From Octopus vulgaris (taxonomy: Eukaryota), in contig OX597816.1 in assembly GCA_951406725.2 (NCBI GenBank), forward strand, positions 50,778,001 through 50,842,000: a stretch of DNA of 64,000 nucleotides, written 5' to 3'. The notes beneath the pieces were generated by a model, which saw only the letters and a list, made by a program, of their open reading frames with translations, had not been told where the DNA came from and did no database searches. Below, one piece after another: positions 9,955 to 51,053 of this stretch. Position 1 is the stretch's first letter, and each line of letters begins with the position of its first letter. A program made the translations under genes and the position numbers.

Positions 9955-9993
9955 AAGAAATACAGGTTTCGCAGTTAGCTCATCAAATTTCTT
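9955..9993 (-). ncRNA. Variant minimal hammerhead-like motif (PLE-1 inverted arm)
   Basis: AAGAAAT-TTGATGA-GC taact GC-GAAA-CCTG-T-ATTTCTT. Confidence 0.6.
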
Positions 9994-10122
9994 GTGACTT
10001 AATGTTTATTTTTAATAACGTAATCCTTGTATTTTTGCTACGGAGAGTTCTAAATTAGGGAAAGTAGTGAGTGATTTTTTCCGGTGTAAGGGAGATAATC
10101 GCCAAAAAAATTTTTTCTTCCT

Positions 10123-10650
10123 TTAGTGTGAATTTCTCTGTATTATTGAGTTCGGATAGTTGAGTCTGGGTTTGTACTTTTCAATGAAGAATGTTTCCTT
10201 ATTTAGCCTAATTTGTGATGATGATCCGAAAGCACATTGGTAAAATGGAAAGATTAAAAATTGTGGTTGTAGTTGCTTTGCGCATTTCTCAATGTGTTCA
10301 CTAAAAGGTATCATTCTATATTCTGGGAATGCAATCTGTTGTCGATGCAGTGTGCATCTACGTCTGAGTGATAGTCCCGTGGACCCCACGTAGTCTTGGT
10401 GGCAGCCCGAGCATTTAATGACATAAATTATGTTTTCAGAGGCACAAGTAAAGTTAGATTTGATCTTGAATTTCTGTCCCTCTTTAAAGAAGAATTCTGA
10501 TCCTTCCAATAGGTTAGGACATGTTGCACAGTTCGATCTACCACATTTTTTTTACTTTTGCATCCGTAACTTTAGAAGACAATTTTGCCTTTGTGAGAAT
10601 CTTTTTAAGTGATTTAGGCTGTTTGTAGCTTTTAATGATTTGGTGTATGT
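10123..10650 (-). pseudogene. Inverted duplicate of the PLE-1 GIY-YIG domain
   Basis: Same peptide as the C-terminus of the 11977-12777 ORF. Confidence 0.9.
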
Positions 10651-10737
10651 ATGACTTTGGTGATTTTTTAATGGTTTCATTTATAATTTGACTTTTATGA
10701 ATTTTTGGCAGAAAATAGAAAAGGCTATGTGGTTACA

Positions 10738-12777
10738 GATCTTGACGAATTATGTAACCACATTGAGAACTTCCCCTACCATACTATACATAAACAGAAA
10801 GCTAACCCAAATTTTAACACTACACAATGGAAAGCACTGATAGAACTTCAAAATGATGAGGATATAACCATTAAGGAAGCAGACAAGGGAAATGCAGTTG
10901 TAATAATGGATACATCATACTACAGAAATCTTGTAATTTCCTTGCTTGATGACGACCTACATTATGAAAAAATTACCAACTACACCCAACAAAAAATAAT
11001 GAAAACTCTATCTTCACTAATTAAAACCCATGAAAAGGAACTAACAACCAAAGAGATTGATTTCCTAACAAACTTCAAATGCAAACCTAGCCTTTTCTAT
11101 GGTCTGCCAAAAATTCATAAAAGTCAAATTATAAATGAAATCATTAAAAAAACACCAAAGACATACATACACACACCCAACCCGGGGGACCTAAAACTAC
11201 GACCCATTGTAGCTGGCCCAACCTGTGAAACACACAGACTAAGTCTGCTTATGGACATCCTCCTGAAACCCTTCCTTAAACATATCGATAGCCATATCAG
11301 AGATGACTTAGATATGTTAAACCACCTCCCAAAAAAAGCCAAGGAAGAAACAATCCTGGTTTCATTTGATGTAGTCAACTTGTATACCAGTATACCTCAT
11401 AATTATGGACTGGAAGCAATTCAGTTCTGGTTAGACCAATTTCCGGAAGAAATACCAAAAAGGATCAGTAAAGTATTCATTACTAAATCAATTGAATTCA
11501 TCCTACACAATAACCACTTCATGTTTGACAATAAATTTTACCGTCAAAAATCCGGAATTGCTATGGGTACAAGGGCAGCACCAGTCATTGCGAACTTAAC
11601 AATGGGATACATGGAAATAACCATTTACCAGGAATCCTTATCAATCTTCGGAAACCCCCTCTCTCAATACATAAAAGAGAACTGGAAACGATTCTTGGAC
11701 GATTGTTTTATTCTCTGGAATGAAAACACAGATAAACTCTTAAAATTTAAAAACCTATTGAACAGCATAAACCCAAATATACAGTTCACAATGGAATACA
11801 ACCAAAAGGAGCTCCCGTTCTTGGATATACTAATTAAAAAAATTAACCTTAAAATAGAAACAGACATTTTCTACAAAGCCACAGATGCCAAACAATACCT
11901 TCTTTTTAGTTCATGCCACCCAAGACACACTTAAACAAACATTCCCTTCAACCTTGCAAGAAGGATATGCACAATAGTGTCAGAACAAAACACCAGGAAC
12001 TTCAGACTGCAAGAACTCAAAAACACCTTAATTGACAGACATTACCCAACTCAACTCATAGAGGATGGGATCAGACGTGCAACAGAAATCAACATAGAAA
12101 CTTTAAGAAAAGTTCAACACAACAACACACCTTCCCCGAAAATACTACCTTACATATCTACATACAACCCCAGAAACAAAGAAGCTTTCACCATCATCAC
12201 CCAGAATTTAACAATACTTCATAAAAACCCCAAATTAAAGGAAATTCTAAACATACACCAAATCATTAAAAGCTACAAACAGCCTAAATCACTTAAAAAG
12301 ATTCTCACAAAGGCAAAATTGTCTTCTAAAATTACGGATGCAAAAGTAAAAAAATGTGGTAGATCGAACTGTGCAACATGTCCTAACCTATTGGAAGGAT
12401 CAGAATTCTTCTTTAAAGAGGGACAGAAATTCAAGATCAAATCTAACTTTACTTGTGCCTCTGAAAACATAATTTATGTCATTAAATGCTCGGGCTGCCA
12501 CCAAGACTACGTGGGGTCCACGGGACTATCACTCAGACGTAGATGCACACTGCATCGACAACAGATTGCATTCCCAGAATATAGAATGATACCTTTTAGT
12601 GAACACATTGAGAAATGCGCAAAGCAACTACAACCACAATTTTTAATCTTTCCATTTTACCAATGTGCTTTCGGATCATCATCACAAATTAGGCTAAATA
12701 AGGAAACATTCTTCATTGAAAAGTACAAACCCAGACTCAACTATCCGAACTCAATAATACAGAGAAATTCACACTAA
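10738..12777 (+). pseudogene. PLE-1 RT plus GIY-YIG endonuclease, one in-frame stop at 11932-11934
   Basis: IKEADKG, YGLPKIHK, LRPIV, SFDVVNLYTSIP, GIAMG, KRFLDDCF, LPFLD, CxxxxCxxC linker, IIYVIKCxxC..YVG, H..H..C. Both ORF pieces are in the same frame; TAA replaces the K of HTKTN seen in PLE-2. Confidence 0.92.
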
Positions 12778-12906
12778 AGGAAAACAATTTTTTTAAAGCG
12801 ATTATCTCCCTTACGCCGGAAGAAATCACTCACTACTTTCCCTTATTTAGAACTCTCCGTAGCAAAAATACAAGGATTACGTTATTAAAAATAAACATTA
12901 AGTCAC

Positions 12907-12945
12907 AAGAAATTTGAAGAGCTAACTTCGAAACCGGTATTTCTT
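12907..12945 (+). ncRNA. Variant minimal hammerhead-like motif (PLE-1 3' end)
   Basis: AAGAAAT-TTGAAGA-G ctaactt C-GAAA-CCGG-T-ATTTCTT; 7-bp stem I, palindromic stem III ACCGGT. Confidence 0.62.
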
Positions 12946-49199: not shown

Positions 49200-49473
49200 A
49201 CGAGGAGGAGAAGGAGGAGAAGAAGAAGAAGAAGAAGAAGAGAAAGAAGAAGGAAGAGCAGAAGAAGAAGAAGAAGAAGAAGAAGAAGAAGATGAAGGAG
49301 AAGGAGAAGAAGAAGGAGGATGAGGAGGAGAAGGAGGAGAATAAGAAAAACATAAAGGAGAAGAAGTAGAAGAAGAAGAAGAAGAAGAAGAAGAAGAAGA
49401 AGAAGAAGAAGAAGAAGAAGAAGAAGAAGAAGAAGAAGAAGAAGAAGAAGAAGAAGAAGAAGAAGAAGAAGAA
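49200..49473. repeat. (GAA)n/(GAG)n microsatellite
   Basis: Seen directly. Confidence 0.95.
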
Positions 49474-50064
49474 ATCGCTAACATCAAACGCGTAGTTTAC
49501 ATTGCAATGTTATATTTAATTATTTATATAATCAAATGTACAGAAATGGCGTCGTCAAAAATAATTGTGCCGTTGGTGATTTCTTTTACTTTTTGGGACG
49601 TTTCCCTCTCACTTTTCCGACAGGAAACCGTGTTGGACCTCTTAGCTCTTTCTTTTCACCGAGGGCCACACTTATACATACGTTTCTTCTGCACATTCTT
49701 TCGTTGCCAGTTTTTATTCATTCATTTGAATTGTTTGTTTATTTGAAGTGACTATTTACTTCACGCTCCGAAGGACGTCCCGCGACGTTCGGACTGATTT
49801 GGAGTACCTGATTCATAGATTTCTTATTCTATTCGTGGTTTACGTTAACGTTAAATTCATTTTTACGTCGTGACTTCTGCACATTTTATTATATATATAT
49901 ATGTATATATATATATATATATATAAAAGGAAATGAAGAAAATGCTGACAAATAATTGAAGTAATTTAAGTAATTTAATTAGGTGAAAGTTCTTTTTACC
50001 GGTTGCGCATTTGTTATGCTTATCAAAATATAAAAGAGAGATTAGAGTCTGTCTCTTATATGTG

Positions 50065-50270
50065 AAAAAAAGAGGCTCCAGAGTTGTTTTGGATTTGCTT
50101 GGTTTCGCGCCTAAAATTTTGATTGGTCATTATGAAGGGGTCACGTGAATGTTTGAATGGAAGTTGGTGTTGGGGTAAGAAAAAAGGCTCCAGAGAAGTT
50201 AAAATTTGGCTAGTGTCCCGCCTAAAATTTCTTATTGGCCATAATAAAGAGGTCACGTGAATGTTTAGAA
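50065..50270. promoter_or_regulatory. 112-bp tandem duplication with E2F-like, CCAAT and E-box motifs in the PLE-3 3' region
   Basis: TTTCGCGC 50103; ATTGG 50122 and 50234; GGTCACGTGA 50139 and 50251. Confidence 0.35.
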
Positions 50271-50745
50271 TTTTCGAAAATAGTGTTGTTGAAAATTCTT
50301 ATTGTTCAGGCTGGTCAGTAGACGTCATGTGGATATTTTAAATAGCTTTTTAGCGCGTAGTTAGGGAGTGTATTTTCCGCTTGACTGGATAAGTAAGTTC
50401 GTTTAGAACAGGGAGAGCTGTATGTATGTATGTGTGTGTGCGCGCGCGCGCGTGTGTGTTTATATGTATGTTGGGGCGCGCGCGCGTGTATATATGTGTG
50501 TGTGTGTGGGTACAATTTTCAATATTTATAGTTCTGCTGGCCTTGTGCCTGTATCGGGAAGCAACGTATTTGTGTGAAGTCAATATTTACAGCCATTTCC
50601 AAAAAATAGTGTTGGATGTTTTGCACCCGTATTCAATTATGTGTATGTGTGGAACCATATATTTGTGTGTGTCATGGTGTTAATATCTGGGTAAAGGTGT
50701 GTGTAGGGTGTGTGCAGGTGTAAGTGTGTTTGTTGTGGGTTCGTG

Positions 50746-50963
50746 TTAGGGGCATGTGTTTAGAAGTGGTCTGTATTTATTAATAAGGTGGGATTCCATG
50801 GTTATTCGCTGGGTATGAGTGGCATTGTCTTTAAATTTGTAGAGGGGAAAGATTCTAAAATTGGGATGGAGTTGTGCGGCACAGGTATCAATATGTGCAC
50901 TAAATGCTATTTTTCTATATTCCTGTATTTTTATTTGGGATCTGTGGACAGTCATGCGTTGGC
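50746..50963 (-). pseudogene. C-terminal part of PLE GIY-YIG endonuclease
   Basis: QRMTVHRSQIKIQEYRKIAFSAHIDTCA..FRIFPLY..RITMESHLINKYRPLLN aligns with the PLE-1 and PLE-2 C-termini. Confidence 0.85.
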
Positions 50964-51006
50964 ATATAATATATTTTTTCACATATAAGAGACAGACTCT
51001 AATCTC

Positions 51007-51053
51007 TCTTTTATATTTTGATAAGCATAACAAATGCGCAACCGGTAAAAAGA
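51007..51053 (+). ncRNA. Variant hammerhead-like motif (PLE-3; mirror copy at ~49991-50037, minus)
   Basis: TTGATAA-GCAT aacaa ATGC-GCAA-CCGG-T. Confidence 0.5.

Follow-up and report, generated by a model that had tools for sequence, protein, structure and literature searches.

Minimal U3-A8 hammerhead motifs in Penelope-like elements of Octopus vulgaris

Hammerheads of Penelope-like elements

The active hammerhead fold is tied to a pair between core positions 3 and 8, and G at position 17 is disfavoured for cleavage. Minimal hammerheads (min-HHRs) of Penelope-like elements (PLEs) include U3-A8 families, with about 1,300 hits in S. mansoni (Cercyon), and a U3·G8 row from a Saccoglossus kowalevskii(1) PLE; in the rows compared, every U3 form has H17, and the authors leave functions other than cleavage open (Cervera and De la Peña 2014, PMC4209133). 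A U3-A8 hammerhead has been published as active in vitro. Small PLE hammerheads need to dimerise in order to cleave (Lünse et al. 2017, as reviewed in PMC6765202). Among natural core variants, some have extra bases 2a/2b ahead of position 3 or 13a within GAAA, and these keep low activity (Perreault et al. 2011, PMC3088659). The hammerhead of PAc, a Poseidon element of Anolis, cuts only with protein; catalytic mutants insert normally in vitro, and insertion also works with templates that start at +20, without the 5' core strand (Frangieh et al. 2024, PMC11167929). Among PLEs, Neptune and Nematis share a CX2-5CxxC linker (Craig et al. 2021, PMC8557442).

How do the motifs of Octopus vulgaris compare? 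The window is a 64,000-nt stretch of contig OX597816.1. The motifs share with the PLE min-HHRs of Cervera and De la Peña the type I architecture, the place in the pLTR, a short stem I, a helix III of the form GAAA-N-palindrome-N-U-H, the U3-A8 swap, the many sequence families per genome and the pairs on opposite strands. They differ in that U3-A8 is the main form, the extra base between A9 and 10.1 is absent from most families, and stem II may be as small as 2 bp; A13C and 1-nt junction losses occur here and are absent from the Fig. S3 rows compared. The Perreault variants also have U3-A8 covariation, and U·U at 10.1-11.1 as in family E, but are mainly microbial or phage and, in the parts of that paper compared, have neither N17 loss nor A13C. 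With the dimers of Lünse et al., as the review describes them, the motifs share a short palindromic stem III, the presumed need for a dimer and the link to PLEs. In PAc the hammerhead lies just 5' of two tail-defining RT start sites; comparably, family C copies end either some 72 nt or some 113 nt past the motif. PAc alone has a C3-G8 core, an overlap with the ORF start, membership of the Poseidon clade and in vitro data, whereas the present motifs are known from sequence.

Three insertions in the window

The window holds the following features:

9816..10650, minus strand: 5'-truncated inverted arm of family A, with the GIY-YIG end and 3' UTR
9955..9993, minus strand: A1 mirror motif, within the family A inverted arm; CCTG in place of CCGG, N7=U
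10687..12777, plus strand: family A ORF with RT (RVT_1, E=1.7e-08), CX4CX2C linker and a weak GIY-YIG match (E=0.0039); one in-frame stop at 11932-11934
12907..12945, plus strand: family A1 motif; stem I 5' strand 12907-12913, core U3 to A9 12914-12920 (U3·G8), stem II 12921-12929, here with one mismatched pair, GAAA-CCGG-U16.1 12930-12938, followed by A and the 3' half of stem I
35993..36041, plus strand: decayed family D copy, by likeness to D1 loci; E=0.55 with model R1
36384..37900, minus strand: inverted arm of the family B insertion
36471..36511, minus strand: B1 mirror motif, within the family B inverted arm and identical to the plus-strand copy
38096..40446, plus strand: family B ORF with RT (E=6.2e-08), linker and GIY-YIG (E=2.9e-04); one frameshift near 39646-39748
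41075..41115, plus strand: family B1 motif; TATTC, U3-A8 core 41080-41086, 5-bp stem II, GAAAACCGGTT, GAATA
49917..50963, minus strand: family C long arm, with the last 71 GIY-YIG codons and the whole pLTR; 99.8% to the full element L086
49991..50037, minus strand: C mirror motif in the long inverted arm; identical
50974..51155, plus strand: family C short arm, with in order a TATA-like word (at 50984, 34 nt 5' of U3), the motif, the tail and (TA)n
51007..51053, plus strand: family C motif; U3-A8 core 51018-51024, 4-bp stem II, GCAA (A13C), CCGG, U16.1 at 51046, A17
63685..63740, plus strand: decayed copy of another repeat family; canonical C3-G8 core, long stem II, ACAGCUGU palindrome, A17

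The first-pass annotation had placed the six motifs correctly (U3 at 12914, 41080 and 51018 on the plus strand and at 9986, 36506 and 50026 on the minus strand) and near the element termini, about 70-150 nt from the ends. All six copies are present, but each mirror sits in the inverted arm of the insertion that holds its plus-strand partner, which leaves three independent observations, not six. The inverted-repeat arms are the part used from the window repeat search, the rest of which was swamped by (TA)n. The three 3' UTRs are indeed unalignable: blastn gave no A-B and no A-C match, and one 12-nt B-C match (E=0.084). The GAAA said to be common to the three families holds for A and B but not for C, which carries GCAA. 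Stem II, reported to covary, changes from family to family with its pairing kept; the copy at 12907 is broken (GC...TC), and the GC/GC pairing is true of its mirror and of the family.

Two further sites had been read as decayed relatives, and neither belongs to a class without N17. The site at 35997 is a copy of family D, which belongs to the U3-A8 class and has A17 and a CAG/CUG stem I. For 63685, copies read together give a C3-G8 core with A17, not the U3 class. Model R1 recovers the six motifs in the window, a circular result as the model includes their families, and misses 63685.

Family D also has a U-rich stem I with AG just before U3, a candidate splice acceptor. Contigs of five runs covering the C pLTR-ORF1 region and the D 3' UTR contain no intron-like joint; such contigs are blind to RNA ends.

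The host elements

The domain order of the carriers, from Pfam matches and a reading of the linker, is RT, CX4CX2C linker and C-terminal GIY-YIG with CCHH. The motif sits in the pLTR of RT + GIY-YIG carriers; L086 has it in both of its 873-nt pLTRs. In groups A, B, C, D, E and F the EN ends 136-1,941 nt before the motif, as seen in a single copy for E and likewise for A4; in groups G and H, no EN was detected in the reach of the search around the motif. Groups A-F form separate RT-EN clades in a quick tree (support A 100, B 100, C 99, D 99) of copies from this genome, in which group B is unrooted and the long and short forms within A are not separated. The carriers appear to be one clade of RT + GIY-YIG Penelope-like elements, Neptune-like by domain order. 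Like the EN+ Neptune and Nematis PLEs in the parts of Craig et al. compared, they have RT, the linker, GIY-YIG, pLTRs, an inverted truncated arm, a tail of 30-40 nt and (TA)n targets; the element ends adjoin (TA)n in the window and at most loci. Family C differs in having a separate upstream ORF that overlaps the RT-EN frame. With the family C endonuclease as protein query, all of the at least 150 matches listed (88-100% identical) were family C itself, so this gives no family survey independent of the motif.

A U3-A8 class across the genome

A pattern with U3 and R8 has 13,243 matches in the genome and 328 with a reversed control, an excess of about 40-fold; about 12,800 of the matches are U3-A8, and the U3·G8 subset counts 469 (control 120). 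The C3+R8 pattern gave 922 matches (control 214) and a pattern for forms other than GAAA 2,670 (control 466), about three quarters of the first 100 of the latter being family C as judged by eye. All search patterns demanded the CCGGT palindrome and surveyed motifs with that palindrome, so its invariance is partly built in and provides no independent test of frequency.

Across 28 family representatives, hand-picked and mutually related, the 3-8 pair is UA in 20, UG in four, CG in two and other in two. A Watson-Crick 3-8 pair with GAAA is found at the level of the class, but fails in A1 (U·G) and in C (GCAA). In the same hand-picked set, 82.1% of stem I and stem II cells are paired, with a covariation score of 0.546 that was reached by none of 500 shuffles and beats all slid controls; stem I covariation likewise exceeds all 500 shuffles and all slid controls, in agreement with the covarying motif noted at first. 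The sequence of stem II varies by family with pairing retained, and helix III is a palindrome with A15.1-U16.1, ACCGGU or AACCGGUU, across all families. Dimers joined by the palindrome are predicted to be more stable than two monomers in 13 of the 13 representatives folded. One 359-nt tandem family is C3-G8, while its solo relatives are U3-A8. An Rfam scan of the window placed no hammerhead family in the best 150 of 204 matches, amid microsatellite noise.

Read from its bases, the motif falls among the minimal type I hammerheads, with U3-A8 as core pair and ACCGGU as palindrome. The claim of a U3-A8 hammerhead-type motif conserved in Neptune-like PLE ends is thereby borne out, and the family consensuses show no return to C3-G8.

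Position 17 and the cleavage register

Is the cleavage-site base missing? The absence of N17 had been proposed as a trait of the class, with a shifted cleavage register as one possible reading. In the 28 hand-picked representatives, 83.9% of stem I cells are paired with N17 kept and 38.4% with N17 removed. Among the first 30 unselected genome hits (L110 and L111 being one place, and the single B1 hit being scored canonical under the 6-bp palindrome parse), 27 fit the canonical register, two tie, one has N17 plus an extra 5' base, and none prefers the register without N17. The base after the palindrome is A in 16, C in eight, U in five and G in one of them. In most families position 17 is still an unpaired base, either A, C or U. 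Automatic register scoring called 40 of 70 rows 'weak' and lost family E to the stem II filter; the representatives and unselected hits supersede it. Neither N17 loss as a class trait nor the shifted register agrees with these data. Nor is there a new class defined by N17 loss: most families keep position 17, and U3-A8 and U3·G8 PLE hammerheads are already published (Cervera and De la Peña), so the class is known.

The three window families have to be read one by one. By pairing, only A1 fits a reading without N17: its 17/1.1 junction is 1 nt shorter than in the sister families A2-long, A3 and A4, and folding predicts -16.3 kcal/mol without N17 as against -14.3 with A17 and an unpaired 5' U. 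The group A pattern has 2,497 genomic matches (control 0). In a hand tally of 100 listed matches, 57 are long, 35 short with C after U16.1 and eight short with A. That C cannot pair with U2.1; as the short form mostly has C there (35 of 43), the base lost is the partner of U2.1, not N17. G8 occurs in 11 of 43 short and none of 57 long matches (Fisher p=4e-5, the copies being related and not independent). For B1, one U shorter than older B subfamilies, the answer depends on the parse: AACCGGUU without N17, or ACCGGU with U17, in which case GAAAA is one A too long. In B1 a palindrome of 8 bp can form, with no N17 left over. The group B pattern has 888 matches (control 0); in a hand tally 66 are short, 65 of them B1, and 34 are long, from several subfamilies. 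In family C the best stem leaves A17 unpaired. Its 6-bp stem I exists only across a 5-nt linker, and the junction-proximal stem I has 2 bp. The tree and parsimony suggest that N17 is ancestral and that junction shortening in A and B was independent.

Damaged motifs in young families

The lesions are fixed within families, in loci that were best hits to the window copies and therefore lean toward the window allele: G8 plus the 1-nt junction loss in 30 of 30 closest family A loci, the lost U in 25 of 25 for B, and GCAA with the broken stem I in 30 of 30 for C. The families with these damaged motifs are young and range in size from hundreds of copies to about two thousand. Hardly any variation is seen in stem II or the palindrome of A1, B1 and C; their youth explains this, though function could do so as well.

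Where do the copies begin? In group A, with copies picked solely on sequence 3' of the cut, the start falls 3 nt or less from it in one of 68 A3 and none of 32 A1-type cases, with 0.45 expected; there is no excess of cleavage-defined 5' ends in group A. Of the family C copies, 28 of the 49 older ones begin 27-34 nt past the TATA-like word, with the motif whole, and 11 of the 22 young ones begin 4-12 nt 5' of U3, the place to which a deletion of about 50 nt brings TATA+30; in this sample, each of six older and three young pairs is the two arms of a single insertion. The start site predicted for young C would strip the stem I 5' strand from the 5' copy. As these copies were picked for holding the motif, they say nothing on the share of RNAs cut. 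The long arm of family C also contains two repeats of about 95 nt, each with E-box, CCAAT and GC-box-like words.

Weighing the explanations

The reading favoured here, at a probability of roughly 0.72, is that the motifs belong to the known U3-A8/ACCGGU class, in which most families would cut slowly as dimers and the three window families would be weak or dead cutters. The suggestion of a catalytically weak or dead fold is plausible for these three families taken singly. Alternatively, the fold may be kept for a non-catalytic job, dimerisation through ACCGGU or a handle for RT-EN, with catalysis long abandoned or never of importance. This is unlikely. It would suit three young, high-copy families that retain stem II and palindrome despite lesions that should hurt catalysis, the stability predicted for palindrome dimers, the lack of excess copies beginning at the cut in group A, and the non-cleavage functions left open by Cervera and De la Peña. 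However, the mostly Watson-Crick 3-8 pair, with U3-A8 far above U3·G8, and the single G at 17 in the 30 unselected hits are marks of selection for cleavage. The palindrome's invariance is partly imposed by the search, and the +20 templates of PAc, from another clade (Poseidon), speak against RT recognition.

There is a slimmer chance that the damaged forms cut the normal site with the help of protein, A1 having A17 and an extra U before U3, B1 having U17 and GAAAA, and C tolerating A13C. The residual activity of the natural 2a/2b and 13a insertions, the dependence of PAc on protein, and the common short A form with C17 and a perfect 6-bp stem I (35 of 100 listed) are consistent with it. But the 2a/2b variant described is 425-fold slower than the consensus ribozyme, A1 combines U3·G8 with its junction change, and C has only the 2-bp junction-proximal stem I, while in young C the predicted start site would strip the stem I 5' strand from the 5' copy. 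It is very unlikely that A1 and B1 each independently lost a cleavage-junction base and yet cut, without N17 or at a shifted scissile bond and helped by their own protein, with C as an active A13C core; if the three were active despite their lesions, the minimal hammerhead consensus would be rewritten. Even less credence is given to A1 and B1 as active hammerheads without N17 that cut in a shifted register. Their forms are fixed in families, both can pair stem I right after U16.1, and a 1-nt loss arose in two separate clades; against this, the base lost in the short group A form is mostly the U2.1 partner, the unselected hits never fit the register, A1 and B1 have no common compensating change, the losses lie in A/U runs that would be prone to slippage, and no active hammerhead of this kind, N17-less and register-shifted, was found in the literature searched. 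The notion that the motifs are chance words or just decayed canonical copies could appeal to the Rfam scan; it is rejected on the 40-fold genomic excess, the fixation in families and the stem I covariation.

On the favoured reading of slow dimer cutters with damaged young families, published relatives suggest that helix III would arise between the palindromes of two copies, and that cleavage would fall 3' of H17, possibly assisted by the element's own protein. Retrotransposition would proceed without need for the hammerhead cut; if so, a master copy with a damaged motif could still amplify. Reverse transcription likely begins 70-115 nt downstream and passes through the uncut motif, and in short family C copies it would end at the pLTR transcription start.

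What the octopus families mean for PLE biology

U3-A8 is the main form here, in a Neptune-type clade, and searches restricted to CUGANGA overlook more than 13,000 motifs of this genome. The motif class is likely to be under relaxed selection. Sister families form a natural series differing by single core steps (A3 intact, A2-short, A1b and A1; B2 and B1; C with A13C). With sister families one core step apart and damaged young families, the need of PLEs for hammerhead cutting becomes testable in a second clade, beside the single in vitro study.

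Abundance and core type of the motif

The hammerhead motif in the pLTR/3' UTR of the Penelope-like elements (PLEs) is genuine and abundant, and the class to which it belongs is known. All six copies claimed by the first-pass annotation were found at their positions, but each mirror copy lies in the inverted arm of its partner's own insertion, which leaves three independent families and not six cases. Family letters (A-I) are labels of this analysis. The three PLE insertions in the window are as follows:

10687-12777, RT and GIY-YIG frame of family A; inverted arm at 9816-10650
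38096-40446, frame of family B; inverted arm at 36384-37900
49917-50963 (-), long arm of the family C insertion; short arm from 50974 (+)

The surrounding animal genome (2.8 Gb, 227 contigs) is rich in (TA)n. In this genome, the pattern TTGANRA-N8-26-GAAA-N0-1-CCGGT has 13,243 matches versus 328 for a reversed control. U3-A8 is the rule for the core, since G8 accounts for only 469 of the U3-pattern matches (control 120); C3 forms of the pattern have 922 matches (control 214). Family C has GCAA and was therefore searched with a separate pattern, giving 2,670 matches (control 466), and about three quarters of the first 100 matches listed were assigned to this family by eye. The window allele is fixed in the closest copies, a biased sample, at 30/30 loci for A, 25/25 for B, and 30/30 for C.

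The CX4CX2C linker of Neptune/Nematis elements is also present in families A and B, whose RT-EN proteins are ~51-57% identical to that of family C. No alignment was found among the 3' UTRs of A, B, and C. Family C is very young, its copies being 100% identical over 167 nt in 40/40 scored. A full family C element elsewhere in the genome (L086, contig G000:C8) has pLTRs of 873 nt, a unit of 4,471 nt, an upstream ORF, and an intact RT-EN frame of 784 codons; the two frames overlap (L086:1936-5639; family C occupies 49917-51155 in the window). ORF1 (431 aa, ATG near 2059) gave no Pfam match. The RT-EN frame starts at 3285, and a T-run near 3314 could be a -1 frameshift site.

Other features of the window include a non-LTR element at 26922-31783 (-), whose ORF1 carries a zinc knuckle and whose AP endonuclease-RT-zf-RVT ORF2 is broken by a frameshift, and 100 N in a row at 32422-32521 (an assembly gap or masked stretch). 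A decayed RT at 51500-52611 (-), ~30% identical to family C and adjoining (TA)n, is likely a PLE of another clade.

Is the cleavage-site nucleotide missing?

The absence of N17, with stem I directly after U16.1, had been proposed as a trait of the class, and this is not borne out. In an alignment of 28 family representatives, hand-picked from 37 listed, stem I is paired in 83.9% of cells when N17 is left unpaired, with many double changes, versus 38.4% when it starts directly after U16.1. Among the first 30 unselected genome matches, 27 fit the canonical register best and two are ties; the remaining match is best read with N17 and an additional base on the 5' side, and the register without N17 is preferred in none. 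The base at 17 is A in 16, C in 8, U in 5, and G in 1. Two sites taken for decayed relatives also speak against the loss of N17, because both families have A17: 35997 belongs to family D, and 63685 to another family, whose core is canonical (C3-G8).

Lesions of the three families

What, then, distinguishes the window copies? The group A pattern has 2,497 copies versus 0 in the control. By hand tally of 100 copies listed, 57 are long, with N17 plus a paired A, while the short form has one base less, with C after U16.1 in 35 and A in 8; the window family A1 is of this last kind. No pair can form between C and U2.1, and the simpler explanation of the short lineage is therefore loss of the 1.1 partner, with N17 kept and an extra U left before U3. 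In A1, the A after U16.1 can close a pair with U2.1, which folding favours by 2 kcal/mol. G8 occurs in 11/43 short versus 0/57 long copies of the 100 listed.

The group B pattern has 888 copies versus 0 in the control. Among 100 listed, 34 are long forms from several subfamilies, with an 8-nt palindrome and U17 or A17, and 66 are short forms with one U missing, nearly all from the young family B1. B1 can be read both with and without N17; its 8-bp palindrome would favour the reading without. Family C keeps A17 and carries A13C, and its stem I has only two junction-proximal pairs. Both U3·G8 and A13 changes are expected to impair hammerhead catalysis strongly.

A quick RT-EN tree of 38 rows, rooted for drawing only, separates A, B, C, and D at support 99-100, with E and F outside. 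It is thus likely that the junction was shortened independently in A and in B, and that the short state is derived. Among other families, E (L105, L101, L207) starts stem II with U·U, and its 3' UTR is ~1.9 kb long; H and I have A·A at this position, and C3 with A8 is frequent in I.

Are copy 5' ends set by cleavage or by a promoter?

To select group A copies, only sequence 3' of the predicted cut was used (100 listed of 555 matches, all 100 included). Starts within 3 nt of the cut were found in 1/68 A3-type and 0/32 A1-type copies, where the local breakpoint rate predicts 0.45.

In the pLTR of family C, an E-box (CACGTG), CCAAT, and GC-box-like words occur in both of two ~95-nt repeats, which are followed by a TATA-like word:

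50065-50271 (-) and 50982-51017 (+), promoter-like region in the window
1643-1888 of L086, the same region in the full element

The 71 family C copies sampled (49 older, 22 with a young 3' marker) were selected for holding the motif; arms of one insertion were counted separately, and end positions are blurred by TA-like microhomology. Of the older copies, 28/49 start 27-34 nt after the TATA-like word, at an initiator-like TCAGAT ~57 nt before U3, and 10/49 run past 190 nt. The young subfamily has lost ~50 nt, which puts the TATA-like word 34 nt before U3 and the point ~30 nt after it just before U3; 11/22 young copies start 4-12 nt before U3, versus 2/49 older ones (p=1.5e-5). Three young copies with undeleted upstream sequence start at TATA+30-32. 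The 5' ends are thus likely to be set by the promoter. In the stubs, the motif would have been copied through uncut, from RT starts ~72 or 113 nt downstream.

Other hammerhead-related loci

In family D (L090, L091, L215; window 35985-36002), U3 is immediately preceded by a pyrimidine-rich tract and TTACAG, which resemble a 3' splice site in sequence. For the D. virilis PLE, the intron has been reported to terminate at helix I. No intron-like joint was found in the contigs examined, which cannot show RNA ends, either at the putative family D site or in the pLTR-ORF1 region of family C.

A canonical C3-G8 minimal hammerhead lies at 53812-53857 (+), with a 5-bp stem II, a CG palindrome, U17, and a 5-bp stem I, near a self-inverted repeat (53515-53658). 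On contig G000:C1, a 359-nt tandem repeat (L156-L162, L228) carries a canonical C3-G8/C17 hammerhead and is retrozyme-like (for background, preprint 10.64898/2026.07.22.740005); its solo relatives (L206, L213) have U3-A8 and the same stem II type.

Comparison with published hammerheads

The minimal hammerhead was defined, and reported in Neptune PLEs, by Cervera and De la Peña (PMC4209133), with the consensus GAAAN-palindrome-NU-H; a hammerhead consensus is also given in PMC7151607 and PMC3088659. Cervera and De la Peña already describe U3-A8, with ~1,300 matches in S. mansoni, and a U3·G8 PLE motif from Saccoglossus; H17 is present in all of their rows compared, and activity in vitro was low and required dimers. 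Perreault et al. (PMC3088659) describe natural variants of reduced activity that have U3-A8 or insertions at 2a/2b or 13a. No natural hammerhead without N17 or with A13C was found in the literature compared, a set standing apart from the largest PLE variant collection (Lünse et al. 2017) and from the figures and part of the supplement of Cervera and De la Peña. The proposed U3/no-N17 class dissolves into a published core swap and three lineage-specific lesions.

Do PLEs need a cutting hammerhead? The PAc hammerhead needs protein in order to cut, its catalytic mutants insert normally, and templates from +20 onward still work (Frangieh et al., PMC11167929). Naiads proliferate without canonical hammerheads, and Craig et al. 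(PMC8557442) consider that hammerheads may simply parasitise PLEs. In Octopus vulgaris, the damaged forms of the motif sit in young, successful PLE families, and this graded natural series within one genome lets one test whether PLE hammerheads need to cut.
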